A DNA stretch of 64,000 bases, from the NCBI GenBank assembly GCA_938034905.1, contig CALHLF010000010.1, positions 6,108 through 70,107 on the forward strand, written 5' to 3'. Shown piece after piece: positions 50,533 to 62,941 of this stretch (positions within the stretch are counted from its first letter, which is position 1; each line of letters begins with the position of its first letter). Below the pieces are notes generated by a model. It ran no database searches. It was not told where the DNA came from and worked only from the letters and a program-made list of their open reading frames with translations. The DNA comes from an uncultured bacterium. GTDB taxonomy: Bacteria; Dictyoglomota; Dictyoglomia; Dictyoglomales; Dictyoglomaceae. The position numbers and the translations under genes were made by a program.

Positions 50533-51555
50533 TTACTCTCCTAAATATTCTTTAACAAGTTTTATATTCTCCTCTATAAGATCAGGAATGGGAAGTCCAT
50601 AGGGACATCTTGGAAGACACTTTCCACATCTTGTGCAATTCTGAGCTTTTAGATAAGCATCATAAAACCATCCACTACTTATATTATCCCGGGACAATCT
50701 TTTTATGAAGGAATCTGCTCTAATAATTACGGAAATAGGTATTCCCTGAGGACAAGGTTGACAGTAATCACATCTTCTACAGAAGATTTGTCCAAGTTCT
50801 TTTCTTGTTCGCTCAATTTCCTCCCATTCTTCATAAGTTAACGGGGAAGGATCCATAGCAATTTTCACATTTTCCTCCACCTCTTCTATAGTTTCCATTC
50901 CTGGATCGGGAATGATAAATTCCTTCTGTAAAACGAATTTCAAGGCAAGCTTTGGATTAGGAAGAACTCCACCTCCTATTGGTTTCATAGCAATAATTCC
51001 AATATCTCTTTCAAGAGCCATGGAAAAAATTTTTTCTTCTACTTTTGTCTCTATAAAGTTATAACATAACTGAACTACATCGAATCTATCAGTAGCAATT
51101 AACTCTTCTAATAAGTCAGTACTATGGCTTGATACAGCAATAAAATCAATAAGTCCCTCCTCCTTTGCTTTTAAAAGACCATAATAGGCACCATCAGAGG
51201 AAAACACTTTATTAAAACTCTCTTTATCATTTACCCCATGAAGATGATAGATATCAATCTTTTCTACCTCTAAATTTTTTAAACTAATTTTTATATCCTC
51301 ATAAATTCCATCTTTTGTCCTATTGGGAGACTTAGAGGAAATATATACCTTTTTGTTAATCCCCTTTATCGCTTTTCCAATTTTAATCTCACTATCTCTA
51401 TATCCCCTTGCAGTATCAATTAAGTTAACTCCTAATTCAATTGCCCTTCTTACAACCCTTATCGCCTCTTCTTCACTTATTCTTTGAATGGGAATTCCAC
51501 CAAAGGCAATGGGAAAAACTTCAATATTTGTTCTTCCAAGTCTTCTGTATTTCAT
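50533..51555 (-). CDS. aldo/keto reductase fused to a C-terminal 2x[4Fe-4S]-type Cys cluster domain
   Basis: AKR N-terminus (MKYRRLGRTNIEVFPIAFGG, IDTARGY) plus CRRCDYCQPCP and CTRCGKCLPRCP. Confidence 0.85.
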   Translation of the reverse strand: MKYRRLGRTNIEVFPIAFGGIPIQRISEEEAIRVVRRAIELGVNLIDTARGYRDSEIKIGKAIKGINKKVYISSKSPNRTKDGIYEDIKISLKNLEVEKIDIYHLHGVNDKESFNKVFSSDGAYYGLLKAKEEGLIDFIAVSSHSTDLLEELIATDRFDVVQLCYNFIETKVEEKIFSMALERDIGIIAMKPIGGGVLPNPKLALKFVLQKEFIIPDPGMETIEEVEENVKIAMDPSPLTYEEWEEIERTRKELGQIFCRRCDYCQPCPQGIPISVIIRADSFIKRLSRDNISSGWFYDAYLKAQNCTRCGKCLPRCPYGLPIPDLIEENIKLVKEYLGE

Positions 51556-51587
51556 ATAACAACCTCCCTAATTTTAACTTTCCTTTA

Positions 51588-51616
51588 ATAATATTGAAAA
51601 TTTAACATCAGGACAA
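51588..51616 (-). promoter_or_regulatory. candidate promoter of the AKR-ferredoxin gene
   Basis: Minus strand ATTACCCTTGTCC, 17-nt spacer, TATTAT. It mirrors the tctC promoter. Confidence 0.45.
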
Positions 51617-51671
51617 GGGTAATGATTAATGATAATTTTGAATTTTTAGTCTGAGCTTCAAATTATTACCC

Positions 51672-51700
51672 TTGACATTTAATCCTTCATATGTTAGTAT
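51672..51700 (+). promoter_or_regulatory. sigma-70-like promoter of the tctCBA-isomerase-crotonase-cupin-BKACE operon
   Basis: TTGACA (51672-51677), 17-nt spacer, TAGTAT (51695-51700). The -10 overlaps the 13-bp box. Confidence 0.55.
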
Positions 51701-51709
51701 ACAGTATAC
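51697..51709. promoter_or_regulatory. 13-bp box GTATACAGTATAC (site 1, perfect): candidate GntR operator
   Basis: Two GTATAC palindromic hexamers spaced 7 bp apart, overlapping the -10/+1 of the tctC promoter. Confidence 0.6.
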
Positions 51710-51826
51710 AAAGCAACAATAAATTATTTAAAAAGTTTTCAAAATTATATGTAAGGAGGTGAGAAGTTTAAGTATATTTCATCTTTCCTTTTTACATAAT
51801 AATCTCTTAAGGAGGGAGATATCAAA

Positions 51827-52837
51827 ATGTTTAAAAAATTAAATCTGATTCTTGTTATAATTTCACTTTTGGGATTGTTATTTCTCTCAACTAATATAGC
51901 TGCAGAATGGCCTAGAAGACCAATTACTATAGCATGTTTTGCAGCAGCAGGGGGAGGAACTGATCTAACTAATAGAACCCTTGCAGGGGTAATGGAAAAA
52001 TATTTAAAAGTCCCAATAAATGTAGTTAATATGACTGGAGCAGGGGGAGCTGAAGCTGTAAACTATGTATGGCAACAAAAGCATGATGGTTATACGTGGC
52101 TTGGCCATTCTGAAGGAATACTACTTATGCCACTAATGGGAGCCTTTCCACATACTACAAAGGTCTGGGAAAGTTTTATACTTTGTGGTTCACCAGAACT
52201 CTTCTCTGTAAGAAGTGATTCTCCCTATAAAACAATGGCAGAAGTTTTAGAGGCAGCAAAAACAAAAGAAATTAAAGTTGGTGCATCAATCCCAGGAGCT
52301 ATTCACCATATGAAACTAATGTATTTAGTAAGGGTAACAGGGCTTAAATTTAAATATGTCCCATATCCTGGAAGTTATCCTTCTCAAGTAGCTTGTTTGG
52401 CTGGAGAAGTAGATGCAGTAATGACATCTTTGCAAGAGCAAAGTGAGCTTTTAAAGGCTGGGAAATTGAGAGCTCTTGCAGCAATAGAAAAAACAGCCTT
52501 AGATGTTCCCGGAATTGGAAAAATACCATCTATTGTGGATTGGGTACCACAATTTAAGAAAATTCCTGAAATTAAGCAGATGTTAGGCTTTTCTGTTCCT
52601 TATGATGTTCCTGCGGATGTAATAACTAAAATTAGAACTGCTTATATATATGCCCTAAGATCAGAAGAGGTCAAAAACTTTATAGATAAAAATTATCTTA
52701 TACTATATGGACTCTATGGAACAAGGGCTAAATCATTTATTCAAAAGTTAGAAAGTATATTTGCATGGCTTGCATGGGAAGCAGGACTTGTTAAAGAATC
52801 TCCTGAAAAGTTTGATATACCAAAGCCAGCATTTTAG
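51827..52837 (+). CDS. tctC: tripartite tricarboxylate transporter substrate-binding protein (TctC/Bug family)
   Basis: Signal peptide and AAGGGTDLTNRTLA...VVNMTGAGGAEA...DGYTWLG, typical of Bug/TctC. Confidence 0.85.
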   Translation: MFKKLNLILVIISLLGLLFLSTNIAAEWPRRPITIACFAAAGGGTDLTNRTLAGVMEKYLKVPINVVNMTGAGGAEAVNYVWQQKHDGYTWLGHSEGILLMPLMGAFPHTTKVWESFILCGSPELFSVRSDSPYKTMAEVLEAAKTKEIKVGASIPGAIHHMKLMYLVRVTGLKFKYVPYPGSYPSQVACLAGEVDAVMTSLQEQSELLKAGKLRALAAIEKTALDVPGIGKIPSIVDWVPQFKKIPEIKQMLGFSVPYDVPADVITKIRTAYIYALRSEEVKNFIDKNYLILYGLYGTRAKSFIQKLESIFAWLAWEAGLVKESPEKFDIPKPAF

Positions 52838-52850
52838 TTGAGGTATATCT

Positions 52851-53348
52851 ATGCTTAAAAAAGAATCTTTAAGAAAAGCAGATGTTATATCTTCCATAAT
52901 ATTGATAATATTAGGGATCTACGTTATAAAAGAAGCTTTAAAAATGCCAGCAACAGGACTTCCAGGTACGGTAGAACAGGAGTTCTATCTGGCACCAGGT
53001 TTTTTCCCAATTATTGTAGCTATAGTATTAATAATTATGGGTTTATTTTTGTTAATAAATGGAATAAGGTCTGGAGGGAGAATCTCAAAAGATGATTTGA
53101 GAAAATTTGTAAAAATATTTACATCAAAAAATGCTATAAGATCTATAGTAATAACAGCTCTAATAATTATATATACCATCATATTGTTAGGAAGGATACC
53201 TTTCTTTTGGGCAACTTTTATCTTCTTAGCAGGTTCCATGTTTTTTCTTAAAGCAGGCTCTTGGTGGAGTATACTCCTGATTTCTACTATAGGTTCTCTA
53301 ATAATACAATACTGTTTCGGAACCTTAGCGAGAATCCCCCTCCCATAG
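52851..53348 (+). CDS. tctB: tripartite tricarboxylate transporter small membrane subunit TctB
   Basis: 165 aa with 4 TM helices, positioned between tctC and tctA. Confidence 0.7.
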   Translation: MLKKESLRKADVISSIILIILGIYVIKEALKMPATGLPGTVEQEFYLAPGFFPIIVAIVLIIMGLFLLINGIRSGGRISKDDLRKFVKIFTSKNAIRSIVITALIIIYTIILLGRIPFFWATFIFLAGSMFFLKAGSWWSILLISTIGSLIIQYCFGTLARIPLP

Positions 53349-53358
53349 GGGGATTCTC
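53330..53358 (+). other. strong intercistronic stem-loop spanning the tctB stop codon
   Basis: GAGAATCCCCC tcccata GGGGGATTCTC. An 11-bp perfect stem with no following T-run, 27 nt upstream of the tctA start. Confidence 0.7.
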
Positions 53359-53385
53359 CATATAATTAGATGGGAGGATAAATTA

Positions 53386-54894
53386 ATGGGGCTATTTATA
53401 TTTTTTCAGGAACTTATTAATCTAATTACTAATGGACAAATTTTATTTTTAATGTTTATATCCACTATTTTAGGAATAATAATTGGAGCTTTACCAGGTC
53501 TTACTGCTACTATGGGAATTGCCCTTCTAACAGGAATTACCTTTGGTCTCCCTGCTAAATTAGCTGTTCCTATTTTAATATCTATATATGATGGTGCTAT
53601 ATTTGGAGGATCTATAGCTGCTGTCTTAATAAATATTCCAGGGACTCCTGCTTCTGCAGCTACAGCTCTCGATGGATATCCTTTGGCAAAACAGGGAAAA
53701 GCAAAGGAAGCATTACTTATAACAAGAATTGCATCATTTATAGGAAGTTTATTTGGAATGATATGTCTCTTAGAGATTGCTCCTTTGTTAAGTAAAGTTG
53801 CATTACAATTTACCTCTCCAGAATTCGCTTTATTGGCCCTCTTTGGAATAACTATTTGTGGTTCCTTAACAGCACCAGATTTAGCAATAAAAGGTTGGAT
53901 TGCTGGGTTTTTAGGAATTTTAGTTTCATGTATTGGGATGGATGGTCTTCATGGATTTCCAAGATTTACCTTTAATATACCAGAACTTCTCGGAGGAATA
54001 GCCTATGTACCAGCTATGATAGGTGTATTTGGAATACCTCAAGTTCTTATTTCTTTAAGATATTCTACTGGAGAAATGGCAAGAATTATAGAAGTAAAGA
54101 CCAAATTAATGAATATATTAAGGATAATAAAAAATCATATTTTTTGTGTATTGAGATCAGGAGTGATAGGTGTATATGTAGGAACAATTCCAGGGGTTGG
54201 AGAGGATGTTGCATCATGGCTTTCTTATGATACAGCAAAAAGAAGCAGTAAAAACTCTGAATCCTTTGGAAAAGGAGCCTACGAAGGAATTATAGCTTCA
54301 GAAACAGCAAATAACGCTTGCATAGGTGGAGCTATAATTCCTCTATTGACCTTAGGAATTCCTGGCAGTCCTCCTGCTGCGGTACTTCTTGGAGCATTAC
54401 TTCTTCATGGTATAAGGCCTGGTCCCATGTTACAGTTTGAATTTCCCAATTTTATATACGAAATGTCAGCATTACTGGCTATAGCAAGCTTTCTTTTATT
54501 AATTTGTGGAACATTAATGACAAGCATTTTAGTGCCCATATTAAGAAGAACAAAAAATGAAATCCTTATGCCTATAGTTGCTACTCTCTGTGTAATAGGT
54601 GCTTATGCCATAAATATAAGTCTTTTTGATATTAAAGTTATGGTAATTTTGGGACTTCTTGGTTATATTCTTGTAGAAATGGGATATCCCATGGCACCCT
54701 TTGTTTTAGGAGTTATTTTAGGGCCAATGATTGATGTAAATTTAAGAAGAACTTTACTTACCTCAAATGGAAGCTTACTTCCCTTTGTTACCCGCCCAGT
54801 GAGTATAATACTTTTAATACTTATTGCTTTCTCCTTCATCTCTCAAACCTCTTGGTGGAAAAATAGAAAAAAGAAAGGAGTAAAGGTATCATGA
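53386..54894 (+). CDS. tctA: tripartite tricarboxylate transporter large permease TctA
   Basis: 502 aa, multi-TM, with GALPGLTATMGIALL, NIPGTPASAATALDGYPLAKQG and GIPGSPPAAVLLGAL motifs. Confidence 0.9.
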   Translation: MGLFIFFQELINLITNGQILFLMFISTILGIIIGALPGLTATMGIALLTGITFGLPAKLAVPILISIYDGAIFGGSIAAVLINIPGTPASAATALDGYPLAKQGKAKEALLITRIASFIGSLFGMICLLEIAPLLSKVALQFTSPEFALLALFGITICGSLTAPDLAIKGWIAGFLGILVSCIGMDGLHGFPRFTFNIPELLGGIAYVPAMIGVFGIPQVLISLRYSTGEMARIIEVKTKLMNILRIIKNHIFCVLRSGVIGVYVGTIPGVGEDVASWLSYDTAKRSSKNSESFGKGAYEGIIASETANNACIGGAIIPLLTLGIPGSPPAAVLLGALLLHGIRPGPMLQFEFPNFIYEMSALLAIASFLLLICGTLMTSILVPILRRTKNEILMPIVATLCVIGAYAINISLFDIKVMVILGLLGYILVEMGYPMAPFVLGVILGPMIDVNLRRTLLTSNGSLLPFVTRPVSIILLILIAFSFISQTSWWKNRKKKGVKVS

Positions 54895-55853
54895 GACCAA
54901 AATATTCTGTTATTACTGGTTTTCTTGGGAGACTTACTGATAGGTTTGCAGAATACCAACCTCCAAGATCCTTAGAGGAAAAATTTGAATTAGCTAAAAA
55001 AATTTCTAAATGTTCTGGTTTAGAGTTAATCTATCCTTCTGACTTTTCTGATCCTATCCTCTTAAAAAAATTACTAAAAGATTATAATCTTGAAGCTTCT
55101 GCGGTAAATCTAAATGTAAAGAGTGAAGAAAAATGGAGATTTGGATCTTTCTCTTCAAAAGATAAGAAGGTAAGAGATGAAGCAATAAAATATATGAAAT
55201 CTGCTATGGATTTTGCAGTAGAATTGGGATGTAATTTAGTCACTTGTGCCCTTCTAAATGATGGAAATGATTATCCCTTTGAGGTAGATTACATTAAGGC
55301 ATGGGAGGCTACTGTAGATTCTATTAGAGAATGTGCAGATTATAGGAAGGATGTAAAGATTAGTATTGAATATAAGCTTTGTGAACCAAGAATGCATGTA
55401 ATTATAGGAAATGCAGGTAAGGCTGCCTTTTTCTGTGATCAGGTAGGTAGAGAAAATGTTGGAGTAACCTTAGATGTAGGACATGCTTTTCAATCCTTAG
55501 AAAATCCTGCTGAAAGCTTAGCAGTACTTGGGAGCACAGGAAAACTTTTTTATGTGCATATAAACGATAATTACAGAAATTGGGATTGGGATATGATACC
55601 AGGCACTGTAAATTTTTGGGAGTATATAGAGTTTGCATTGTATCTTAGAAAAATTGGCTATAATTCCTGGATTACTGCAGACGTTTTCCCTCAAAGATTG
55701 GATCCAGTAAAAGTCTTTACAAAAACCTTTGAGTGGATGGATTTATTATTTGATATTGCAGAAGAATTAGAAAGAAGAAATATCTTTGAGCTTATTGAAA
55801 AGGGAGATATTCTTGAAACATTGTCATTAATTAATTCTGTATTGAAAGGTTAA
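54891..55853 (+). CDS. sugar (phosphate) isomerase/epimerase, xylose isomerase-like TIM barrel
   Basis: 320 aa with IEYKLCEP, LDVGHA and HINDN metal-ligand-like pattern. Overlaps the tctA stop by 4 nt. Confidence 0.75.
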   Translation: MRPKYSVITGFLGRLTDRFAEYQPPRSLEEKFELAKKISKCSGLELIYPSDFSDPILLKKLLKDYNLEASAVNLNVKSEEKWRFGSFSSKDKKVRDEAIKYMKSAMDFAVELGCNLVTCALLNDGNDYPFEVDYIKAWEATVDSIRECADYRKDVKISIEYKLCEPRMHVIIGNAGKAAFFCDQVGRENVGVTLDVGHAFQSLENPAESLAVLGSTGKLFYVHINDNYRNWDWDMIPGTVNFWEYIEFALYLRKIGYNSWITADVFPQRLDPVKVFTKTFEWMDLLFDIAEELERRNIFELIEKGDILETLSLINSVLKG

Positions 55854-55866
55854 ATCGAAAGGAAAA

Positions 55867-56592
55867 ATGACTAAGTTTATAGAGGTAGAAGAAAGGTCTC
55901 CCCTATTGATATTAAGATTAAACCGGCCTGAATTTCAAAATAGATTAAATATAGAAATGATGGAAGAGATAATTTCTCACTTAGATAAAGCAGAAAAAGA
56001 TGCTAATATAAAGGTTGTAGTGTTATCTTCTAAGGGAAATATTTTCTGTGCAGGAGGAGATTTAGGGAATTATAAAAAGGTCTCAGAGTTAAGAAGATTT
56101 GGAGAAAGATTTATTAAGCTACACCTAAGAATTGTTAAGCTAAACAAACCAGTTATTTGTGCAATAGAAGGGGGAGCTTATGGGGGTGGCTTAAGCTTAG
56201 TAGATGCTTGTGATCTTGCTGTTGCATCCCAAAATGCGACCTTTGGTTTTCCTGAAATTAGATCTAATTTAGCTCCAATGATGTCTTTGGCAGGTATAGG
56301 AAGAACTATAAGTAGAAAAACTATAAATGAATTATCTTTAACAGCCAAAGAAATTTCTGCAGAGGAAGCTAAAAAACTTGGAATAATAAATCAAATCGTA
56401 GAAGATGGAAAAGCAGAAGAAGTTGTAATTGATTTAGCTCTTGAGATCTCTAAAAAAGATAGTTCTGCTATCTCGTTTTATAAATATCTTTTTGGACATC
56501 TTTATGAAAAAGATTTTGAGGAAAGGATGGAAAAGGGCTTAAATGTATTGATCAATTTGTTAAAAGAGAAGGAGGAAACTAATTTTAAATGA
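55867..56592 (+). CDS. enoyl-CoA hydratase/isomerase (crotonase) superfamily protein
   Basis: 241 aa with FCAGGDLG and GGAYGGGLSLVDACDLAVAS..ATFGFPEI oxyanion-hole motifs. Confidence 0.85.
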   Translation: MTKFIEVEERSPLLILRLNRPEFQNRLNIEMMEEIISHLDKAEKDANIKVVVLSSKGNIFCAGGDLGNYKKVSELRRFGERFIKLHLRIVKLNKPVICAIEGGAYGGGLSLVDACDLAVASQNATFGFPEIRSNLAPMMSLAGIGRTISRKTINELSLTAKEISAEEAKKLGIINQIVEDGKAEEVVIDLALEISKKDSSAISFYKYLFGHLYEKDFEERMEKGLNVLINLLKEKEETNFK

Positions 56593-57137
56593 TTACTAAG
56601 AGACAATATTTAGAATATAAAGAGCTTGGCATAAAATATCTTGAGAAGGCTTATGTAATAATAAGAGAAGATGAAAAGGAAAAAATAGAAGTGGCAGATT
56701 TTGGATTAAGTGATCTTGATAATTTTGCTATAATAACTTTAACCTTCTTTAATACGGAGAGAATTAGTGCAAAAGTAATAGTAGTTCCTCCAAGAAGAAT
56801 ATGCCCAGAACATTGGCATCCCCCCGTTGTCCATGACCCTGGAAAGGAAGAAATCATGAGATTAAGATGGGGAACTCTTTATTTGTATGTGGAGGGAGAA
56901 AAAACTTCAAATCCCAAAGCTAAGTTACCAGAGTATAGAAGAAAGTATTTTACTGTCTGGCATGAAATTATCATGAAACCAGGGGATCAATATTATCTTC
57001 CTCCTGGAGTTAAACACTGGTTTCAAGCAGGAGACGAAGGTGCTGTAATAGATGATTATTCTACATGTTCCCGAGATGCTTTAGATCAATTTACTGATCC
57101 AGATATTGTTAGAATTCCAGTAATAAAGGAGGAGTAA
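56589..57137 (+). CDS. cupin-fold sugar isomerase (D-lyxose/D-mannose isomerase-like)
   Basis: 182 aa. CPEHWHP....GKEE..RLRWGTLYLYV...KHWFQAG resembles the H-x-H / K-x-E / H cupin metal site of lyxose isomerases. Assignment is tentative. Confidence 0.5.
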   Translation: MITKRQYLEYKELGIKYLEKAYVIIREDEKEKIEVADFGLSDLDNFAIITLTFFNTERISAKVIVVPPRRICPEHWHPPVVHDPGKEEIMRLRWGTLYLYVEGEKTSNPKAKLPEYRRKYFTVWHEIIMKPGDQYYLPPGVKHWFQAGDEGAVIDDYSTCSRDALDQFTDPDIVRIPVIKEE

Positions 57138-57140
57138 TTA

Positions 57141-57956
57141 ATGAAAAATAAAATAATAGTTGGAGTAGCTCCTGTGGGAGGATGGGGGGAAGGAAATAAT
57201 AATCCATTAACCCCTAAGGAGATAGCAGAAGAAGTTTATAGATGTTGGAATGAGGGAGCCTCATATGTACATCTTCATGTAAGAGATGAAAATGGTAAAT
57301 TGACAGATGATTTAACGTTATTTAAGGAGACTGTGGAACTTATAAAGGCAAAATGTGATATCATTATTGATGGCTCTACAGGAGGGTATCCTTCTCTTAC
57401 ACCTTATCAGAGAAGTCTTGTTTTGGAAGTTCCTGGTGTTGAATTAGCATCATTAAATATGGGATCATGCAATTTTTTTGATGGAGTTTATATTAATTCT
57501 CCAAAGGACATAGAATTTTGGGCAAATAAGATGCATGAAAAAGGTATAAAACCAATATTTGAAGTATTTGAAGTAGGTATGATTGAAAGTGCTAAAAAAA
57601 TTATAAATAAGAATTTATTTTCAGAACCATATCTTTTTGATTTTTGTTTGAATTTTCCTGGTGCAATGCCTATTTCTCCTAAAAATATTCTTTTTTTAGC
57701 AGAATCTTTACCTGAAAACTCTCTTTGGGGATTAGTATATTATAATGGTGAGGATTTTATTTTGATGCAAACTACTGCAATCTGTCTTAATGCTCATATG
57801 GTGAGATGTGGATTTGAAGATAGTCCATATATTGCAAAAGGAGAATTAGCAAAAAGTAATGCTCAACTGGTAGAAAAGCTTGTGGGAATAGCACGAAAAA
57901 TTGGTAAAGATATCGCTACACCTTCTGAGGCAAGAAAAATTATGGGCTTATCTTAA
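57141..57956 (+). CDS. beta-keto acid cleavage enzyme (BKACE / 3-keto-5-aminohexanoate cleavage, DUF849)
   Basis: 271 aa with IIVGVAPVGG...NPLTPKEIAEEV..CWNEGASYVHLHVRDENGK, the hallmark BKACE N-terminus. Confidence 0.85.
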   Translation: MKNKIIVGVAPVGGWGEGNNNPLTPKEIAEEVYRCWNEGASYVHLHVRDENGKLTDDLTLFKETVELIKAKCDIIIDGSTGGYPSLTPYQRSLVLEVPGVELASLNMGSCNFFDGVYINSPKDIEFWANKMHEKGIKPIFEVFEVGMIESAKKIINKNLFSEPYLFDFCLNFPGAMPISPKNILFLAESLPENSLWGLVYYNGEDFILMQTTAICLNAHMVRCGFEDSPYIAKGELAKSNAQLVEKLVGIARKIGKDIATPSEARKIMGLS

Positions 57957-58902
57957 TACCTTCTTTTCTTCTTATCACTTCGATGCATGCCTCTACAATA
58001 TGTTTTGGAGAAAGACCATAAATTTCAAAAAGTTCCTTCCAATCTCCGGATTCTCCAAAGGTATCTTTAAGTCCTATTCTTTTCATGGGAACAGGATAAT
58101 TTTCTACTAATACTTCTGCTACTGCTCCACCAAGTCCACCCATTATATTATGATCTTCACAGGTAACAATCCCTCCTGTTTTTTTTGCCAAAGTGATGAT
58201 AAGTTCTGAATCTATAGGTTTTATAGTGCTCATATCTATTACTTTAACTCTTATTCCCTTTTCTTTTAAAATTTTACTTGCTTCTAACGCCATAAGTACC
58301 ATGATTCCTGTTGCAATTATAGAAACATCATCTCCTTCATCTAAAACTATGTTTCCTTTACCAATTTTAAATTTATAAGATTCATCATATATTATTGGTG
58401 TTGGATTTCTCATAGTTCTTAGATAGGTAGGTCCGTAGTCTTCTGCTATAGCAAAAACTGCCTTTTTAGTTGCCACTGCATCTGCAGGATGAATTACTTT
58501 CATATTAGGCATGGACCTCATTATTGCAATGTCCTCTGTTCCTTGATGAGTTGGGCCATCTGCGCCCACTTGAATCCCTCCATGACTTGCTGCTATTTTT
58601 ACATTTACATTGGGATAACAAATGAAAGTTCTTACTTGTTCACAGGCCCTCATACTTGCAAATACCGCATAAGTACTTGTAAATACAATTTTCCCTGTAA
58701 TAGCTAATCCTGCTGCAACTAACATTAAATTTTGTTCTGCAACTCCCACATTAAAAGCTCTATCTGGGAACATCTTATGGAATTTTGTAGTGTAAGTAGA
58801 TTTTGAGATATCTGCATCAATTACCACCACATTAGGATTTACCTGTCCTAATTCTGCCAAGGCTTCTCCAAAAGCCTCTCTGGTAGCAATTTCCTTTTTC
58901 AT
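57940..58902 (-). CDS. transketolase, C-terminal (Pyr + C-domain) subunit
   Basis: 320 aa with REAFGEAL, FNVGVAEQNL and DGPTHQGTEDIA. Confidence 0.92.
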   Translation of the reverse strand: MKKEIATREAFGEALAELGQVNPNVVVIDADISKSTYTTKFHKMFPDRAFNVGVAEQNLMLVAAGLAITGKIVFTSTYAVFASMRACEQVRTFICYPNVNVKIAASHGGIQVGADGPTHQGTEDIAIMRSMPNMKVIHPADAVATKKAVFAIAEDYGPTYLRTMRNPTPIIYDESYKFKIGKGNIVLDEGDDVSIIATGIMVLMALEASKILKEKGIRVKVIDMSTIKPIDSELIITLAKKTGGIVTCEDHNIMGGLGGAVAEVLVENYPVPMKRIGLKDTFGESGDWKELFEIYGLSPKHIVEACIEVIRRKEGIKISP

Positions 58903-59738
58903 AATTTTAAAACCTCCTTCTCCAATTCTTCCATAGCTTTTTTATACTCCTCTTCCTTAGGTGCAAGTCCATGCCATTCTACTTCATTTTCCATAAAAGA
59001 TACCCCTTTCCCTTTTACAGTATGGGCAATGAGAACTGAAGGCCCTCCCACTTTAAATGCCCATTGAAAAGCATTTAGAATCTCTTCAATATTGTGTCCA
59101 TCCACTTCTTTTACCTTCCATCCAAATGCCTCCCATTTTTCTTTAAATGGTTCTACATTCATAATTTCCCTCAGCCATCCATCTACTTCAAGGCCGTTAT
59201 AATCTACAATTGCGAAGAGATTATCCAATTTGTAATGAGCTGCACACATCGCAGCTTCCCATATACTACCCTCCTGACATTCCCCATCTCCTAATAATAC
59301 AAAAACTCTTGATCTCTTATTTGACATTTTTAATCCTAAAGCCATTCCCACACCAATACCTAATCCATTTCCAAGGGATCCTGAAGTATAATCAACTCCA
59401 GGGGTTTTTTTCATATCTGGATGCCCTTGAAGAATAGAGTGAGTTTTTCTTAAGGTCCAAAGATGTTCCCTATCAAAAAATCCTCTTTTAGCAAGAGCAG
59501 CATAATGAATGGGACAGGAATGTCCCTTAGAAAGGATAAATCTATCTCTATCTTCCCATGCTGGATTCTTAGGATCAATGTTCATAATCTCGAAATACAA
59601 AACTGATATTATTTCTGCCGAGGAAAGAGAGCCTCCTGGATGTCCTGCCTTTGCTCTATAAATCATCTCAATTACATCTTTTCTCAACTCCCATGCTATT
59701 TTTTTAAGTCGCCTTACTTTCTCTTCCCATATTTCCAT
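58899..59738 (-). CDS. transketolase, N-terminal (ThDP PP-domain) subunit
   Basis: 279 aa with GHPGGSLS, LSKGH and GDGECQEGSIWEA. 4-nt overlap with the C-terminal subunit. Confidence 0.92.
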   Translation of the reverse strand: MEIWEEKVRRLKKIAWELRKDVIEMIYRAKAGHPGGSLSSAEIISVLYFEIMNIDPKNPAWEDRDRFILSKGHSCPIHYAALAKRGFFDREHLWTLRKTHSILQGHPDMKKTPGVDYTSGSLGNGLGIGVGMALGLKMSNKRSRVFVLLGDGECQEGSIWEAAMCAAHYKLDNLFAIVDYNGLEVDGWLREIMNVEPFKEKWEAFGWKVKEVDGHNIEEILNAFQWAFKVGGPSVLIAHTVKGKGVSFMENEVEWHGLAPKEEEYKKAMEELEKEVLKL

Positions 59739-59772
59739 ACTAATTTCCTCCCAAATCCTTAATATGAATACC

Positions 59773-59785
59773 GTATACAGTATTC
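59773..59785. promoter_or_regulatory. 13-bp box GTATACAGTATtC (site 2): candidate GntR operator
   Basis: Abuts the -10 hexamer of the transketolase promoter. 12 of 13 positions match site 1. Confidence 0.55.
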
Positions 59786-59814
59786 ATTATAGCAAGTAAA
59801 AGCTAAAAATACAA
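59786..59814 (-). promoter_or_regulatory. sigma-70-like promoter of the split-transketolase operon
   Basis: Minus strand TTGTAT, 17-nt spacer, TATAAT. Confidence 0.5.
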
Positions 59815-59828
59815 GATGTGATTTTTTA

Positions 59829-61193
59829 CTAGTTTATAAACTTTCTATAGACTTCTAAAAGAGTATCTTCATCCCCCACATTTCCAGGAAAAACTATATA
59901 AAGAAGTCCTGGATATTTACTTTCTTCTCCCAATTCCCATACAGGTATACCAGGGAAAATTTGACCTAAAACTTTAACCTTTTTTGCTTTTAGCCCTTTT
60001 TGAGCTAATATATGAGAAGTTATTCCTCCCTTTACTATTATGAAATCAGGCCTTTCCTTAAGATTTTTTACTAAATTACTCAAGAAACTTGATATTCTTT
60101 GTCCTATCCTAAGGGGACTAAATTTTTCATCTTTAAAATATTCTCTTTCAGTATATATAACTACGGATTTTCTATTCTTTAACATTTCATCAGTTTTTAG
60201 AGTAATATTTTTTAAATAATTTTTTGAATTATTTATCACTTCTTTAATTTTAATCTCAATATTTTCCAAACTTGAACTCTTCAGTAACTTTATAAGCTGT
60301 GTTGTAGTCATTTTTACATAGGAACCTACTATTATTAATCCCCTTTCTCCCTTTTTCGGCAATATCAAATCCTTTTCTTCCAAGCCTCCTCGAATTTTTA
60401 CAAACGAGGCTGCGGTTCTATATAAAAATCTTTTCCCTTTCTTTTCTGACTCTAATAATCCTAATACAAAAACCTCTAAATCCTCATCACAAAGAGAATT
60501 AACAATTATAGGTCTTCCATTTTTTACTTTTAACAAAATTTCTTTAACTCTTTCAGGCCCTCCCAATCTTATATCTTCAATAGAAATAGATAAAACATCC
60601 TCTTTTTTCCAAAAACTTTTAGATTTTTCCTCTATCCAAGAGGGAAGATGAGCATTTTTATATCCAAAAATTGGATCTAAACTAAATTCTGTTTTATTTA
60701 CCTCTATTAATTTATCATTTCTTATTAAAAAATGATAGTCAAATATTGTAATTCTTTTTCCCTCACCAAAATATGGGATAATAATTATCCCATCGTATGG
60801 TCCTAAAAAATCCATTAGAGTTTTGACTTCTCCAAAGAAATGTCCCCGAAGGGTAGAATCACTTCTACTTATTATCTTGAGATGTTTTATATCTAAATAT
60901 TTTAAAAATTTTTGGGCTATCTCCCTATTTAAAGATATTGCTTTCCTCTCAGAGTATGCCCGTGAATTAGTGAGAATATAGAATATATTCTCTTTAAGAA
61001 TTACATCTTTTAAAATAGGTTCCTCAAAATTTAGAAGCAATAAGAGATCATGAACTGTTTGGCATCCTGTAGGATCATCATCTAATACTATGATCTTATC
61101 CTTTGAAATCTGATTCGCTTCTTTTATTTTCTTTCTTGCATCGGGTATTTTTAGTACTTTTGGTAAATTCTTACTAATTTCTGAATACTTCAT
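59829..61193 (-). CDS. four-carbon acid-sugar kinase family protein (DUF1537; OtnK/DtnK-like)
   Basis: 454 aa. The N-terminal IIVLDDDPTGCQT motif and two-domain length are typical of DUF1537. Confidence 0.8.
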   Translation of the reverse strand: MKYSEISKNLPKVLKIPDARKKIKEANQISKDKIIVLDDDPTGCQTVHDLLLLLNFEEPILKDVILKENIFYILTNSRAYSERKAISLNREIAQKFLKYLDIKHLKIISRSDSTLRGHFFGEVKTLMDFLGPYDGIIIIPYFGEGKRITIFDYHFLIRNDKLIEVNKTEFSLDPIFGYKNAHLPSWIEEKSKSFWKKEDVLSISIEDIRLGGPERVKEILLKVKNGRPIIVNSLCDEDLEVFVLGLLESEKKGKRFLYRTAASFVKIRGGLEEKDLILPKKGERGLIIVGSYVKMTTTQLIKLLKSSSLENIEIKIKEVINNSKNYLKNITLKTDEMLKNRKSVVIYTEREYFKDEKFSPLRIGQRISSFLSNLVKNLKERPDFIIVKGGITSHILAQKGLKAKKVKVLGQIFPGIPVWELGEESKYPGLLYIVFPGNVGDEDTLLEVYRKFIN

Positions 61194-61206
61194 GAGGAGA
61201 TAAAAG

Positions 61207-62184
61207 TTATTTTTTATTTAATACTTCCTTATTAACTAAGGTCCTTGGAATTCTTCCCTCAAAATAATCAATTATATTCTCAGCACATAAAATTGACATT
61301 CCAGATCTTGCGGTTTCTGTTGCACTTCCTATATGAGGCAACATAACTACATTTTCAAGTTCAGCAAGTTCTGGTTCAAATTCAGGTTCCCTCTCATATA
61401 CATCTAATCCTGCTCCCCAAATCCATCCTTCCTTTAAGGCTTTTACTAATGCTTTTTCATCTACTATAGGGCCTCTTGCAGTATTTATCAATATAGCAGA
61501 ACTTTTCATAAGTCTTAATTCTCTTTCTGAAATAAGATGTCTTGTTTGGGGAGTTAAGGGAACATGTATAGAGATAAAATCTGATTCCTTTAAAAGAGTA
61601 TCAAGATCTACAAACTGAGCGGGAATTTCCTTTTCTGCATTTTCATTTCTTACAAGATCATAGTACAAAACTCTCATATTAAATCCTTTAGACATTTTTG
61701 CAAAAGCATATCCGATTCTTCCCATTCCAATTATTCCTAAAACTTTTCCCGAAATCTCTTTTCCTAAAAAAAGCATAGGCCCCCATCCTTTATATTGCCC
61801 TGCTCTCATAAATTTATCCGCAGGAATAATTCTTCTTGCCGTTGCAAAAAGTAATGCCCAAGCAAGTTCTGCGGTAGCATTGGTTAAAACCCCTGGGGTA
61901 TTGGTAACAAATACTCCCCTTTTCGTTGCCTCTTCTAAGTCAATATTATCGTATCCTACTGCGTAATTTGCCACTATCTTAATATTCTTACCTACCTCAA
62001 AAAATTCTTTATCTACTTTATCTACAAGTTGAGTTATTACAGCATCCTTATCTTTAATCCCTTCTAATAATTCTTCTCGGGTTAGAGGTCTGTCATATGG
62101 ACTTACTTCTACATAAAATCCCTTCTCTTTTAATAAATTAATTCCATCCTCCATAATCTTACGCGTAACAAATATCCTTTTCAT
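61207..62184 (-). CDS. D-isomer-specific 2-hydroxyacid dehydrogenase (glyoxylate/hydroxypyruvate reductase-like)
   Basis: GIIGMGRIGYAFA NAD motif, NTARG and LPHIGSAT catalytic His region. The start is taken at MKRIFVTRK (ATG 62182-62184, RBS GGGAGGG) rather than the track start. Confidence 0.9.
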   Translation of the reverse strand: MKRIFVTRKIMEDGINLLKEKGFYVEVSPYDRPLTREELLEGIKDKDAVITQLVDKVDKEFFEVGKNIKIVANYAVGYDNIDLEEATKRGVFVTNTPGVLTNATAELAWALLFATARRIIPADKFMRAGQYKGWGPMLFLGKEISGKVLGIIGMGRIGYAFAKMSKGFNMRVLYYDLVRNENAEKEIPAQFVDLDTLLKESDFISIHVPLTPQTRHLISERELRLMKSSAILINTARGPIVDEKALVKALKEGWIWGAGLDVYEREPEFEPELAELENVVMLPHIGSATETARSGMSILCAENIIDYFEGRIPRTLVNKEVLNKK

Positions 62185-62207
62185 AAAAGTCCCTCCCATA
62201 AAAAATT

Positions 62208-62220
62208 GTATACAGTACAC
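62208..62220. promoter_or_regulatory. 13-bp box GTATACAGTAcAC (site 3): candidate GntR operator
   Basis: Abuts the extended -10 (TGtTATAAT, 62221-62229, minus strand) upstream of the dehydrogenase-kinase unit. Confidence 0.55.
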
Positions 62221-62229
62221 ATTATAACA
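62221..62229 (-). promoter_or_regulatory. extended -10 promoter element TGtTATAAT for the dehydrogenase-kinase unit
   Basis: The reverse complement of attataaca is tgttataat. Confidence 0.45.
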
Positions 62230-62275
62230 TAAACAAATTAATTTTTAAATAAATCAATTTTCAGAAAGATTATTC

Positions 62276-62902
62276 TTATAAAGATTCTATTTTTCTAATA
62301 GTTCTCCTAATATGCTCTCTCATTAATTCCTCGGCCTTTTTACTATCTTTTTCTTTCAAAGCTTCTATAATTCCTAAATGTTCTGGCAAAGTTTCCTTTG
62401 GATCTCTCAATAAACCTTGAAAGAGACATACAGAAAGAAGCCAGAAATTATTTGTTGCTTGACTTAAAATATGATTTCTAACACGTTTTGCTAATCCCGT
62501 ATGGAATTCAATATCCGTATTCCTATATTCTGTGTAATCTCCTTTTTCCACCGAAGACTTATATCGGGACTCTATCTCATTTAGCCATTCAATATCAGGA
62601 TCTTTAGCTGTGAGTCTCGCAGTTAGGCCCTCTAATAAAGCTCTTATTTCAAATATTATTACTAATTCTTCTCGAGTTAATTCCCTAACGTATAATCTGC
62701 CATTTTCCTCTCTTACTAAATATTCCTTTTCTAATTGACTGAGAGCCCTTCTCAAAGGAGTTCTACTTACTCCCATTTCCTTTGCAATTTGTTCCTGAAT
62801 AATCTGATCGCCAGGTTTTAAGATTCCTTTTAAGATCATCTCTTTTAATTTTTCGTAAACTAAAATATCTAATGTCTTTTTTTCTATTTTTGATATCCTC
62901 AT
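62276..62902 (-). CDS. GntR family transcriptional regulator, FadR subfamily (FCD effector domain)
   Basis: 208 aa. wHTH EQIAKEMGVSRTPLRRALSQLEKEYLV and an all-helical C-terminal FCD-like domain with His residues (EFH, EH). Confidence 0.9.
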   Translation of the reverse strand: MRISKIEKKTLDILVYEKLKEMILKGILKPGDQIIQEQIAKEMGVSRTPLRRALSQLEKEYLVREENGRLYVRELTREELVIIFEIRALLEGLTARLTAKDPDIEWLNEIESRYKSSVEKGDYTEYRNTDIEFHTGLAKRVRNHILSQATNNFWLLSVCLFQGLLRDPKETLPEHLGIIEALKEKDSKKAEELMREHIRRTIRKIESL

Positions 62903-62928
62903 TCTATCCTCCCTTTCTTATTTTGTTA

Positions 62929-62941
62929 GCATACAGTATAC
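62929..62941. promoter_or_regulatory. 13-bp box GcATACAGTATAC (site 4): candidate autoregulatory GntR operator
   Basis: Overlaps a minus-strand TGgTATACT extended -10 upstream of the GntR gene. Confidence 0.55.

Follow-up and report, generated by a model that had tools for sequence, protein, structure and literature searches.

A candidate GntR-controlled locus for acid-sugar uptake and breakdown in a Dictyoglomaceae bacterium

Closest described systems

Two pathways for tetronate breakdown follow one logic, in which a C2 dehydrogenase and a DUF1537 kinase act with or without a TIM-barrel keto-isomerase: the four-step route LtnD/DenD-OtnI-OtnK-OtnC (Zhang et al. 2016) and the three-step route LtnD-2-OtnK-2-OtnC (Guo et al. 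2024), both as outlined in PMC12540250 and PMC12994016. Longer acid sugars follow the same oxidise-isomerise-phosphorylate logic in the D-ribonate route of Mycobacterium smegmatis (Luo & Huang 2018, as outlined in PMC12994016) and in vitro, where the dehydrogenase Ltn3D, OtnK and OtnC convert D-gluconate to ribulose 5-phosphate (PMC12994016). These conversions yield ketose phosphates, whose further use calls for pentose-phosphate enzymes, and the D-ribonate clusters outlined there are reported without a decarboxylase gene. In the D-apiose transketolase pathway (ApsI, AplK, AptAB; Carter et al. 2018, with the E. coli SE15 cluster as presented in PMC13001218) a split transketolase is encoded together with an isomerase and a kinase in a cluster dedicated to catabolism. 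[quoted passage not shown] 2019; PMC6365646).

The locus described here lies in a window of 64 kb, the whole stretch of DNA that was analysed, from a Dictyoglomaceae bacterium. Its enzymes follow the logic of the tetronate pathways, but it encodes a D-2-hydroxyacid dehydrogenase in place of a HIBADH-type enzyme, lacks an Aldolase_II or F_bP_aldolase decarboxylase, and adds a split transketolase, BKACE, a cupin, a crotonase and a tripartite tricarboxylate-type (TTT) transporter. It resembles the D-ribonate clusters in having no decarboxylase gene; the outline of those clusters reports no transketolase, BKACE, cupin or TTT transporter. The D-apiose pathway uses the FGGY kinase AplK and an ABC sugar transporter, whereas the locus has a DUF1537 kinase and a TTT system. 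The deoxyribonate pathway relies on an SDR 3-dehydrogenase together with a GarK-type glycerate kinase, and lacks the DUF1537 kinase, transketolase, cupin and crotonase that are all present in the locus. As the original prediction had it, no described pathway in NCBIfam or the searchable literature could be matched to this gene combination, and no open-access paper was found that pairs DUF1537 with a transketolase route.

We tentatively propose that the genes form a FadR-type GntR regulon for the uptake and breakdown of a hydroxy-carboxylate, an acid sugar probably of at least five carbons, with a core and an accessory branch. The best reading of the putative pathway is an as yet undescribed variant of the oxo-acid-sugar kinase pathways that ends in a transketolase and has a CoA-dependent side branch.

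Gene content, transcription units and operator boxes

A Pfam profile search confirmed all 13 genes in the families claimed earlier (Table 1), among them a TTT system for carboxylate uptake. No enzyme of the locus reaches a curated function-level cut-off in NCBIfam. The genes from tctC through BKACE form a single unit with 4-bp overlaps or gaps of at most 38 bp, tctCBA being translationally coupled to the TIM-barrel, crotonase, cupin and BKACE genes. The transketolase genes are joined just as closely and form one unit, and the dehydrogenase and kinase genes are 13 bp apart.

Table 1 Features of the locus and their positions in the window.
Feature	Position	Strand	Evidence or context
Aldo-keto reductase (AKR) + 4Fe-4S ferredoxin fusion	50533-51555	-	Aldo_ket_red 122.7 bits + Fer4_9; 2x[4Fe-4S]; divergent to tctC
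Operator box 1, perfect GTATACAGTATAC	51697-51709		AKR/tctC divergent intergenic region
tctC-tctB-tctA, TTT uptake system	51827-54894	+	
tctC	51827-52837	+	TctC 81 bits
tctB	52851-53348	+	TctB 58 bits
tctA	53386-54894	+	TctA 457 bits
Xylose-isomerase-like TIM-barrel isomerase/epimerase	54891-55853	+	AP_endonuc_2 105 bits
Crotonase-fold protein	55867-56592	+	ECH_1 149.5 bits
Cupin sugar isomerase, D-lyxose/D-mannose isomerase-related	56589-57137	+	weak Lyx_isomer match, 22.5 bits
BKACE	57141-57956	+	BKACE 255.7 bits
Transketolase C-terminal (pyrimidine-binding) subunit	57940-58902	-	Transket_pyr + Transketolase_C domains
Transketolase N-terminal (ThDP-binding) subunit	58899-59738	-	Transketolase_N 183.6 bits
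Operator box 2, triple hexamer GAATAC-c-GTATAC-a-GTATTC (two overlapping boxes)	59766-59785		between kinase and transketolase genes
DUF1537 kinase (SBD_N + NBD_C), divergent clade	59829-61193	-	
D-isomer-specific 2-hydroxyacid dehydrogenase	61207-62184	-	2-Hacid_dh_C 213 bits
Operator box 3, GTATACAGTACAC	62208-62220		dehydrogenase-kinase promoter
FadR-type GntR regulator, winged-helix HTH + FCD effector domain	62276-62902	-	GntR 56 bits, FCD 73.9 bits
Operator box 4, GCATACAGTATAC	62929-62941		upstream of gntR, own promoter region

The promoter regions share a 13-bp palindromic box, GTATAC-A-GTATAC, a putative GntR-type operator. Searching the window with GTATACAGTATAC at two or fewer mismatches gave 11 strand-matches against 0.56 expected, a number reached in 0 of 100 shuffles, and 10 of the 11 fall at four intergenic sites, all of them promoter regions of the locus. 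At every site the box overlaps or directly adjoins the -10 hexamer of a promoter-like match: box 1 overlaps such elements on both strands, box 2 lies immediately downstream of TATAAT, box 3 directly downstream of a TATAAT -10, and box 4 overlaps a promoter-like -10. Boxes 1 and 4 share 25 nt of extended similarity (repeat family D15), and the transketolase box is conserved in an orthologous Dictyoglomaceae contig (L001, 5561-5580). It had been claimed that three of the four units and the regulator gene carry the box. The box is real and gntR is included, but box 1, with a promoter-like -10 on both strands, separates the divergently oriented AKR and tctC genes; therefore all four units may be controlled. 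The FadR-type protein is presumed to repress the locus and its own gene, the inducer presumably being the substrate or an early intermediate bound by the FCD domain.

The most likely start of the dehydrogenase is ATG 62184, which follows the ribosome-binding sequence GGGAGGG. The mechanically assigned GTG start at 62220 was rejected; it would place the operator within the gene.

Enzymes of the locus and their conservation

The dehydrogenase scores 453.2 bits against the NCBIfam glyoxylate reductase model (cut-off 455), 296 bits against PGDH and 266 bits against GhrB. We propose that this glyoxylate/hydroxypyruvate-reductase-like protein is the C2 oxidoreductase of the acid substrate. The TIM barrel falls far under the cut-offs of all NCBIfam equivalogs (RhaI 62, XylA 61, IolO 53 and OtnI 29 bits) and is 23% identical to E. 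coli OtnI. Probable orthologues with 35-48% identity occur in six loci (L022, L064, L042, L059, L091 and L153), and the TIM barrel is the partner most consistently common to the kinase core and the BKACE module.

The kinase scores 72 bits against DtnK (cut-off 450) and 56 bits against OtnK (cut-off 350), and has 20% identity to E. coli OtnK (YgbK) and no PDB match at E ≤ 1e-3. It is about 40% identical to the kinases of clusters that combine an LtnD-like protein, a kinase and an F_bP_aldolase, the architecture of the three-step 2-OtnK/2-OtnC route (PMC12540250). Its divergent clade thus takes in probable 2-oxo-tetronate kinases, and the substrate range given earlier for DUF1537 (four-carbon acid sugars and 3-oxo-tetronates) was incomplete. 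The reported absence of the usual DUF1537 partners, a class-II aldolase-type decarboxylase and PdxA, stands for this locus and extends to F_bP_aldolase. A quick neighbour-joining tree of the clade does not place the transketolase-associated kinases in one monophyletic group; the kinase substrate may vary between gene contexts. Weakly similar AKR-family genes (27-30% identity) adjoin the kinase in L007, L022, L034 and L051.

Aligned to E. coli TktA, the N-terminal transketolase subunit keeps the equivalents of H26, H66, H100, GDG, N185 and H261, and the C-terminal subunit those of R358, S385, E411, H461, D469, H473 and R520. All 13 checked catalytic and phosphate-binding residues are thus retained; Tyr stands at F434, and F437 is unchanged. 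Identity to AptA and AptB is 43% and 33%, yet AptAB, which acts on apulose-4-phosphate, has replaced R358, H461, D469 and R520, and neither AptAB nor the transketolases from other kinase contexts keep the full TktA set. The unusual cleavage by transketolase that was first envisaged is therefore unlikely; the enzyme more probably handles ordinary ketose and aldose phosphates produced by the pathway.

The BKACE retains the HxH, R..GFED and FE.GM motifs of the lysine-fermentation 3-keto-5-aminohexanoate cleavage enzyme (Kce; PDB 2Y7D), including the Zn ligands and catalytic residues. It scores 257.6 bits against the Kce equivalog (cut-off 382), carries GGW in place of the N-terminal GAE motif conserved in five of six Kce-like comparison sequences, and lacks lysine-fermentation neighbours; a Fervidobacterium protein (L093) is 45% identical to it. 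The alignment points to a Kce-like enzyme with a different substrate pocket, from which the Kce amine-binding motif is absent. Residues H75, H77, E88 and H143 of the cupin are invariant (alignment A2). The cupin is paired with BKACE in L001, L088, L089, L091, L092 and L153, and its wider family adjoins PfkB kinases, Zn-ADH and class-II aldolases, which fits a free-sugar isomerase. The crotonase aligns to 3-hydroxypropionyl-CoA dehydratase (5ZAI) with GGGLSL and FPEI, and lacks the first of the two enoyl-CoA hydratase catalytic glutamates (GGGLSL versus GGGxEL). It likely hydrolyses, isomerises or dehydrates the acyl-CoA product of BKACE. Neither an acetoacetate CoA-transferase nor a thiolase is encoded in the 64-kb window.

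Two further Dictyoglomaceae contigs (L001 and L088) carry the complete locus. Two Desulfobacterales loci (L022 and L064) share a core of TctCBA, TIM barrel, split transketolase, 2-hydroxyacid dehydrogenase and DUF1537 kinase, with GntR, and have neither cupin nor BKACE. An Anaerolineae operon (L091) combines GntR and an ABC transporter with a TIM barrel (48% identity), BKACE (51%), Zn-ADH, cupin (45%), both transketolase halves (58% and 57%) and the dehydrogenase (47%), and has no kinase. The TIM-barrel, dehydrogenase, kinase and transketolase core is thus a conserved association in at least two phyla, with a kinase-less version in a third; the BKACE/cupin/TIM trio is likewise conserved in other phyla and is also present in L153. 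The claim of a real, co-localised and apparently co-regulated combination is supported, and the combination is conserved in other genomes. It is modular, however: the kinase occurs without BKACE in more than 80 loci, BKACE/cupin occur without the kinase in L089, L091, L092 and L153, and the crotonase was seen only in Dictyoglomaceae neighbourhoods. A single linear eight-enzyme route is therefore not established.

Proposed pathway and alternatives

By analogy with both tetronate routes and the decarboxylase-less D-ribonate route, we infer a core of five steps. The dehydrogenase would oxidise the C2 hydroxyl to a 2-oxo acid, the TIM-barrel enzyme would shift the carbonyl (2-oxo to 3-oxo) or epimerise next to it, and the kinase would phosphorylate the terminal CH2OH. 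The resulting beta-keto acid phosphate would lose CO2, spontaneously at growth temperature or through another enzyme, to give a ketose phosphate with one carbon fewer (pentulose 5-phosphate or tetrulose 4-phosphate/erythrose 4-phosphate), which the canonical transketolase would pass to the pentose-phosphate pathway and glycolysis. The absence of a decarboxylase gene counts against the proposal, and the core gives no role to the AKR-ferredoxin fusion or the cupin. In the accessory branch the cupin may convert an aldehydo form to the keto form, BKACE may catalyse an acetyl-CoA-dependent Claisen-type cleavage of a non-amino 3-keto acid, most plausibly a 2-deoxy-3-keto acid sugar as proposed for deoxyribonate, and the one-Glu crotonase may process the acyl-CoA product. 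The BKACE mechanism depends on a proton at C2 and is known best from substrates with a C2 methylene. Because ordinary aldonates lack such a methylene, the link between core and branch is chemically unexplained.

The transketolase could instead act first. An imported hexuronate would be converted by the cupin and/or TIM barrel to a 5-keto-aldonate, whose HOCH2-CO-CHOH end would serve as C2 donor for glyceraldehyde 3-phosphate. The transfer would form xylulose 5-phosphate and leave a four-carbon aldehydo-acid, which the AKR-ferredoxin protein would reduce to a tetronate; the dehydrogenase would turn this into 2-oxo-tetronate, and a 2-OtnK-like kinase would phosphorylate it before isomerisation and decarboxylation to DHAP. 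Such a scheme employs six of the enzymes, including an aldose-ketose-type cupin, agrees with the 2-oxo-tetronate kinases in the clade and the weak IolO (5-keto-L-gluconate epimerase) match, and finds an echo in L089, where BKACE/cupin lie beside a heparinase II/III-like lyase and a GH88 unsaturated glucuronyl hydrolase. We consider it unlikely: the transketolase pocket is canonical for phosphate esters with no visible carboxylate adaptation, this route too wants a decarboxylase, BKACE and crotonase are left over, and the Desulfobacterales core has no cupin.

The modularity, the lineage-specific crotonase and the canonical transketolase, which could be a general pentose-phosphate enzyme that is just co-located, would also suit a mosaic of at least two unconnected functions, not one common pathway, under a single regulator: a tetronate-type dehydrogenase/kinase/isomerase set, a CoA-dependent beta-keto-acid set and the transketolase. 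This is improbable given that the same operator precedes every unit, that tctCBA are coupled to the TIM-to-BKACE genes, and that transketolase, dehydrogenase and TIM barrel accompany BKACE/cupin in Anaerolineae and the kinase in Desulfobacterales, two groups in which a housekeeping transketolase is expected in addition.

Quite unlikely is a glycerate/hydroxypyruvate node, in which BKACE would split a 2-deoxy-3-keto acid sugar into acetoacetate and glyceryl-CoA, the crotonase-fold enzyme would free glycerate, the dehydrogenase would interconvert glycerate and hydroxypyruvate, transketolase would take hydroxypyruvate as an irreversible C2 donor, and DUF1537 would be a glycerate-type kinase. The near-cut-off reductase score, the deoxyribonate precedent of glyceryl-CoA followed by glycerate kinase (PMC6365646) and an L091 protein that passes the tartrate dehydrogenase cut-off (506 versus 470 bits) agree with it; but a deoxy-aldonate 3-dehydrogenase is absent, a three-carbon acid is not a known substrate of any DUF1537 member, and the Desulfobacterales core lacks BKACE.

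A route for apionate or another branched acid sugar, related to the D-apiose pathway, is very doubtful. Four loci have PanB-like hydroxymethyltransferases together with the TIM barrel and kinase, and a 15-locus context class of the kinase clade contains a DUF5060/collagen-binding-type glycosidase-like protein, a GFO oxidoreductase, a cyclase-fold hydrolase and an Iso_dh protein, which we take to resemble the oxidative apiose route (glycosidase, dehydrogenase, lactonase, oxidoisomerase, kinase). The FGGY kinase of the known apiose transketolase pathway and the four residues that AptAB lost and the window enzyme kept argue against it, and the locus has neither a RuBisCO-like protein nor a PdxA-type enzyme.

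Least probable is the described L-threonate/D-erythronate pathway in disguise: dehydrogenase, TIM barrel and kinase formally parallel LtnD/OtnI/OtnK, but identities and NCBIfam scores are low, OtnC and 2-OtnC are absent, the dehydrogenase is of a different family, and a four-carbon route to DHAP would not need the transketolase, a conserved partner.

As a putative transketolase-terminated acid-sugar pathway in a Dictyoglomus-like heat-loving bacterium, the locus is a lead for finding new enzyme functions.

Gene content and predicted control of the locus

The locus consists of thirteen genes lying between a tRNA-Asn gene and a rubrerythrin gene. All of the gene families that the original prediction had named were confirmed by Pfam. 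The G+C content of the window is about 32%, and the closest relatives of its proteins come from Dictyoglomaceae metagenome-assembled genomes. Four gene pairs (tctA and the TIM barrel, crotonase and cupin, cupin and BKACE, and the two transketolase halves) are each coupled through a 4-base overlap or a very short gap. The adjacent genes for TctC, TctB and TctA (81.4, 58.1 and 457.1 bits) encode a tripartite tricarboxylate transporter (TTT). None of the locus proteins reached an NCBIfam equivalog cut-off. The TIM barrel came nearest to the NCBIfam models for rhamnose isomerase, xylose isomerase and IolO, scoring 53-62 bits where the cut-offs are 300-531. The dehydrogenase gene most likely begins at an in-frame ATG, 7 bases behind a GGGAGGG sequence that makes a good ribosome-binding site; the mechanical ORF start, GTG 62220, would put an operator inside the gene.

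Features of the locus and its borders, in window coordinates
Feature	Position	Strand	Basis or remark
tRNA-Asn gene	50399-50473		bounds the locus on one side
AKR fused to 4Fe-4S dicluster domain	50533-51555	-	Pfam
Box 1 (putative operator)	51697-51709		perfect match; between divergent AKR and tctC
tctC, tctB, tctA	51827-54894		Pfam
AP_endonuc_2 TIM barrel	54891-55853		Pfam
Crotonase	55867-56592		Pfam ECH_1
Cupin	56589-57137		Pfam; weak D-lyxose isomerase match
BKACE	57141-57956		Pfam PF05853
Split transketolase halves	58899-59738 and 57940-58902	-	Pfam
Box 2 (putative operator)	59766-59785		triple hexamer GAATAC-c-GTATAC-a-GTATTC; ahead of transketolase
DUF1537 kinase	59829-61193	-	Pfam SBD_N + NBD_C
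D-2-hydroxyacid dehydrogenase	likely start ATG 62184	-	Pfam 2-Hacid_dh family
Box 3 (putative operator)	62208-62220		ahead of dehydrogenase-kinase pair
GntR/FCD regulator	62276-62902	-	Pfam
Box 4 (putative operator)	62929-62941		ahead of gntR
Rubrerythrin gene	63018 onward		bounds the locus on the other side

A search of the 64 kb for GTATACAGTATAC with up to two mismatches gave 11 strand-matches where 0.56 were expected, a count that no shuffled sequence reached; ten of the 11 sit at the four intergenic sites listed as boxes. The motif is a GT..AC-type palindrome, the type bound by FadR-subfamily GntR proteins. Every box site lies across the -10 hexamer of a promoter-like match or immediately after it, where a repressor would be expected to sit, and we regard the boxes as predicted operators. 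Promoter-like matches alone are weak evidence, because over the whole scan such sites were no commoner than in shuffled sequence. At box 1 the overlap is with promoter-like -10 elements of both strands, and the AKR unit may therefore be controlled too. The transketolase box is conserved in an orthologous Dictyoglomaceae contig (L001). With its GntR HTH and FCD domains and its palindromic putative operators at promoters, the system has the form of a FadR-subfamily GntR regulon. No riboswitch or other RNA element was found in the locus by Rfam. In the leader of tctC (51700-51826, about 120 nt), which matches no Rfam family, two stretches resemble Shine-Dalgarno sequences: AAGGAGGTGA close to 51752 and AAGGAGGGAG close to 51810.

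Several other features of the window were recorded. A second AP_endonuc_2 TIM-barrel gene (49413-50249, - strand) lies just past the tRNA-Asn gene and adjoins a GH1 gene; it has no box, and its sequence is unrelated to that of the locus TIM barrel. Glucan-utilisation genes at 34375-39256 (-), 41954-43654 (-), 47998-49338 (-) and 11248-12642 (+) comprise two tandem genes of the GH94 cellobiose/cellodextrin phosphorylase type, a glycogen-phosphorylase-like gene, a GH1 beta-glucosidase and a GH4 gene, accompanied by a ROK regulator (39508-40695). A TPP riboswitch (9368-9478, -; Rfam RF00059, 83 bits against a gathering score of 54.3) precedes a gene at 8505-9314 (-). The window also holds a dnaA gene (28320-29642, -) with Bac_DnaA, DnaA_N and DnaA_C domains, and so it probably adjoins the chromosomal replication origin. 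A candidate oriC is the intergenic region 29643-29786, at which no obvious turning point is seen in a coarse profile of cumulative GC skew.

The DUF1537 kinase and the split transketolase

The kinase has both domains of its family at full length (SBD_N, PF07005, 154.1 bits; NBD_C, PF17042, 109.2 bits), and scores far under the NCBIfam equivalog cut-offs for DtnK (72 bits against 450) and OtnK (56 against 350). Its identity to E. coli OtnK (YgbK) is 20%, and the PDB has no sequence match to it. A genome scan with an alignment of the kinase returned at least 80 loci at 36-65% identity, with no Dictyoglomus isolate genome among the matches listed. For 86 loci, these listed matches and six others, ORFs were called and compared with the window proteins. 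Among the matches listed, GntR/FCD regulators were present in 15 of the 86 loci, split transketolase genes in 12-14, the window-type TIM barrel in eight, TctA in six and the window-type dehydrogenase in five.

Four further kinds of context recur in the kinase clade. The first joins the TIM barrel and the kinase to a PanB-like hydroxymethyltransferase. The second combines a transketolase, an Asp/Glu-racemase-fold protein, the kinase and an ABC transporter, with or without an F_bP_aldolase. The third, represented by Clostridium drakei (L081), consists of a HIBADH-type dehydrogenase, the kinase and an F_bP_aldolase, and the fourth, from Verrucomicrobiota, Bacteroidota and Planctomycetota, of a DUF5060-type glycosidase-like protein, a GFO oxidoreductase, a cyclase-fold protein, an Iso_dh protein and the kinase. 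The third is exactly the LtnD / 2-OtnK / 2-OtnC architecture of the three-step tetronate route, as described in PMC12540250. Because these clusters match that route, the window kinase is placed in the clade that probably contains the 2-oxo-tetronate kinases, and not in the OtnK/DtnK group.

Catabolic-looking clusters of GntR, a TTT or other transporter, TIM barrel and kinase in L042, L049, L059 and L067 carry a full-length homologue (321 bits) of PanB, the ketopantoate hydroxymethyltransferase; this suggests removal of a hydroxymethyl group from a branched 2-oxo acid. In 15 loci among the matches listed (e.g. L054, L061, L066, L086, L036 and L046), the kinase accompanies a protein of about 1000 residues with DUF5060 and a collagen-binding domain, and its partners are a GFO oxidoreductase, a cyclase-fold hydrolase, an Iso_dh-family dehydrogenase, a VOC protein and an MFS transporter. 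These loci represent another pathway without apparent assignment, possibly for a branched or rare sugar from polysaccharide.

The window transketolase was aligned with E. coli TktA, whose numbering is used here. It and its counterparts in L001, L064 (Desulfobacterales-type) and L091 (Anaerolineae) keep H26, H66, H100, D155, N185, H261, R358, S385, E411, H461, D469, H473 and R520; in the window enzyme F434 is Tyr and F437 is kept. The ThDP/metal motif, the catalytic His and the phosphate-binding Arg/Ser/His/Arg set of a canonical transketolase are all present. Among the conserved positions are those that, in transketolase structures, contact the substrate phosphate and determine D-threo stereochemistry. 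Given this conservation, the substrates of the window transketolase are most probably ordinary sugar phosphates. That a transketolase is conserved in the pathway argues for a ketose or aldose phosphate other than DHAP as end product or intermediate, which points to a substrate of more than four carbons.

A case can be made that the transketolases of L005 and L023 (beside Asp/Glu-racemase-fold genes), L056 (Bacillaceae) and L012 are more unusual than that of the window. In these four, H461 is replaced by Tyr or Asn and D469 by Asn, Ala or Glu, and R520 is replaced, by Lys or Ser, only in L056 and L012; the pattern is not that of the apiose-pathway enzyme AptAB. They may be transketolase-like enzymes with new substrates. 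By context, L044 and L051 resemble L005 and L023 (kinase, split transketolase, Asp/Glu-racemase-fold protein and ABC transporter), and L058 resembles L056, also from Bacillaceae.

BKACE, crotonase and cupin and their recurrence

The BKACE matched its Pfam profile over positions 1-274 (255.7 bits). Its HLH, FEVGM and RCGFED segments align to the lysine-fermentation enzyme Kce (2Y7D), with the Zn ligands and the catalytic Glu and Arg kept, but it scores 257.6 bits against the NCBIfam Kce cut-off of 382, and the lysine-fermentation genes kamA, kamDE and kdd are absent from its neighbourhood. In the alignment, window-type BKACEs keep HxH, FE.GM and R..GFED and have replaced the N-terminal GAE motif common to five of the six Kce-like comparison sequences. 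In Kce, the Glu of this motif makes contact with the amino group of the substrate. From these motifs we infer a Claisen-type, CoA-dependent enzyme acting on a non-amine substrate. Relatives of more than 79% identity are all from Dictyoglomaceae, and the next ones are 51-56% identical; a Fervidobacterium homologue (L093, 45%) is a genuine lysine-fermentation Kce. The only BKACE precedent in acid-sugar metabolism is the cleavage of 2-deoxy-3-keto-ribonate, put forward as a proposal in PMC6365646, and the NetSyn BKACE preprint contains nothing on this gene context.

An identification of the BKACE as the Thermotoga inositol-pathway hydrolase IolN was dropped, as the protein matches only BKACE-type NCBIfam models; the Thermotogae-related homologue inspected, being a lysine-fermentation Kce, gave that reading no support either. 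The IolM and IolO models were matched weakly by Zn-ADHs and the TIM barrel.

The crotonase has a fold-level ECH_1 match (149.5 bits) and was found only in Dictyoglomaceae among the loci compared. Of the two catalytic Glu residues the second is kept (FPEI) and the first is Ser (GGGLSL), so that the protein is not a classical hydratase. The cupin match to Lyx_isomer is weak (22.5 bits against a cut-off of 20.8); a His/His/Glu/His metal-ligand pattern (H75, H77, E88 and H143) is invariant across eight relatives, and NCBI names the orthologue in L001 a D-lyxose/D-mannose family isomerase. A metagenome scan with a narrow cupin alignment indicated that the usual neighbours of the wider family are PfkB kinases, Zn-ADHs, F_bP_aldolases and ABC sugar transporters, and that most relatives are not beside a BKACE. 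These neighbours fit a predicted aldose-ketose isomerase acting on unphosphorylated sugars.

Two more contigs from Dictyoglomaceae, L001 and L088, carry the arrangement as a whole. In L088 the kinase and transketolase genes are 22 bp apart. In L001 a Zn-ADH and an unannotated 249-residue protein stand in place of the 2-hydroxyacid dehydrogenase; the latter (2295-3044, +) precedes the Zn-ADH and has no Pfam or NCBIfam match, and the former is related to IolM, threonine dehydrogenase and idonate dehydrogenase. The Anaerolineae contig L091 holds a single co-directional cluster of GntR/FCD, ABC transporter, TIM barrel, BKACE, Zn-ADH, cupin, cyclase-fold protein, both transketolase halves, 2-hydroxyacid dehydrogenase and a tartrate-dehydrogenase-type protein, with neither kinase nor crotonase; its proteins are 45-58% identical to their window counterparts. 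The last protein of this cluster (16229-17293, +) passes the NCBIfam tartrate dehydrogenase cut-off with 506 bits against 470, which hints at a tartrate- or malate-like C4 dicarboxylate intermediate there. Smaller groupings were also seen: BKACE and cupin with GntR and an Asp/Glu-racemase-fold protein (L092), BKACE with the latter two (L090), and a LarA-like 2-hydroxyacid racemase with cupin, BKACE, TIM barrel and GFO oxidoreductase (L153).

A candidate acid-sugar pathway and its alternatives

The original prediction noted that the usual partners of DUF1537 kinases were not visible, and this held on wider scanning: no Aldolase_II OtnC, F_bP_aldolase 2-OtnC or PdxA2 was found in the 13 genes, the adjacent genes or the other window genes scanned. 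Its further claim, that no described pathway matches, also stands, in that the enzyme combination was not found in the open-access literature, where absence is not proof.

In the model that we put forward, an acid sugar would enter by TTT uptake and be oxidised at C2 by the 2-hydroxyacid dehydrogenase; the TIM-barrel enzyme would migrate the carbonyl or epimerise, and the kinase would, by analogy, phosphorylate the terminal position. The resulting beta-keto acid phosphate would lose CO2, and the transketolase would bring the product into central metabolism. In an accessory branch, the cupin would provide an aldehydo-acid in its keto form, the BKACE would cleave a 3-keto acid with acetyl-CoA, and the crotonase-fold protein would handle the acyl-CoA. 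The analogies are the four- and three-step tetronate routes and, from PMC12994016, D-ribonate clusters without a decarboxylase and the in vitro conversion of gluconate to ribulose 5-phosphate. Against the model, no decarboxylase gene was found in the locus or the scanned window genes, no chemistry connects ordinary aldonates to a BKACE substrate, the AKR-ferredoxin fusion is left without a role, and the Anaerolineae version of the cluster has no kinase. In the wider window there is neither a CoA-transferase nor a thiolase, nor any other gene able to complete the BKACE branch. We hold the model, core and branch together, tentatively, and judge it somewhat more likely to fail than to stand as a whole.

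Five other readings were weighed, each less likely than this model. A uronate route could begin with the transketolase: in its favour, the neighbours of the BKACE and cupin (47% identity) in L089 are a heparinase II/III-like protein and a GH88 hydrolase; against it, the window transketolase has the canonical residues for sugar phosphates. The locus could also be a mosaic: the Desulfobacterales-type L022 and L064 share TctCBA, TIM barrel, transketolase, dehydrogenase and kinase, with an additional AKR in L022 and GntR in L064, and have no BKACE, crotonase or cupin. A glycerate/hydroxypyruvate node is a third reading. The dehydrogenase is the locus protein nearest to any NCBIfam cut-off (453.2 bits against 455 for glyoxylate reductase). 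Against an apionate-type route, the apiose transketolase pathway employs an FGGY apulose kinase, AplK, and the locus has no FGGY protein. The E. coli apiose cluster, located via PMC13001218, encodes the apulose-4-phosphate transketolase AptAB with R358A, H461N, D469L and R520G, whereas all four residues (R, H, D and R) are retained in the window enzyme, so that its active site is not of the AptAB type. The idea that the apulose kinase is itself a DUF1537 protein was dropped, as the E. coli SE15 apiose cluster shows an FGGY kinase: ECSF_RS02700, named aplK in PMC13001218, is annotated as such. A disguised tetronate route would have a formal parallel in LtnD/OtnI/OtnK, but tetronate routes use a HIBADH-type LtnD/DenD dehydrogenase where the window has one of the 2-Hacid_dh family, and an OtnI isomerase, whose NCBIfam model the window TIM barrel fails (28.8 bits against 325; 23% identity to E. 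coli OtnI, YgbM).

Returning to the acid-sugar reading, the locus is of a known kind, a repressor-controlled acid-sugar catabolic cluster around a DUF1537 kinase, and as a biological system it is nothing new in kind; it is well suited as a target for function discovery and no surprise in principle. We give nearly even chances to the proposal that Dictyoglomota, Chloroflexota and Desulfobacterota have a new acid-sugar pathway. Its conserved components would be a divergent kinase of the DUF1537 family, a dedicated split transketolase of canonical type, a D-2-hydroxyacid dehydrogenase, a TIM-barrel isomerase, and a cupin paired with a BKACE for a non-amine substrate. The substrate of the pathway would possibly be a deoxy, keto or uronic acid derived from polymers of plants or algae, with carbon divided between ThDP-dependent entry into the pentose phosphates and acetyl-CoA-dependent Claisen cleavage.

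In the large families of DUF1537 kinases, BKACE enzymes and TTT transporters, substrates are assigned for a handful of proteins only, and the locus offers a tractable entry point, being compact, self-regulated, equipped with a clear putative operator and recurrent in three phyla. If the new-pathway reading is true, the BKACE would catalyse a new reaction, on a beta-keto acid derived from carbohydrate, the DUF1537 kinase would have a substrate new to its family, and the TTT system would be the first with a sugar acid as ligand. Coming from a thermophile, the enzymes may suit biocatalysis. A solved pathway would extend the acid-sugar catabolic map by further reactions, explain the dedicated transketolase beside this kinase clade and improve the annotation of thousands of homologues now called 'four-carbon acid sugar kinase' or '3-keto-5-aminohexanoate cleavage protein'.
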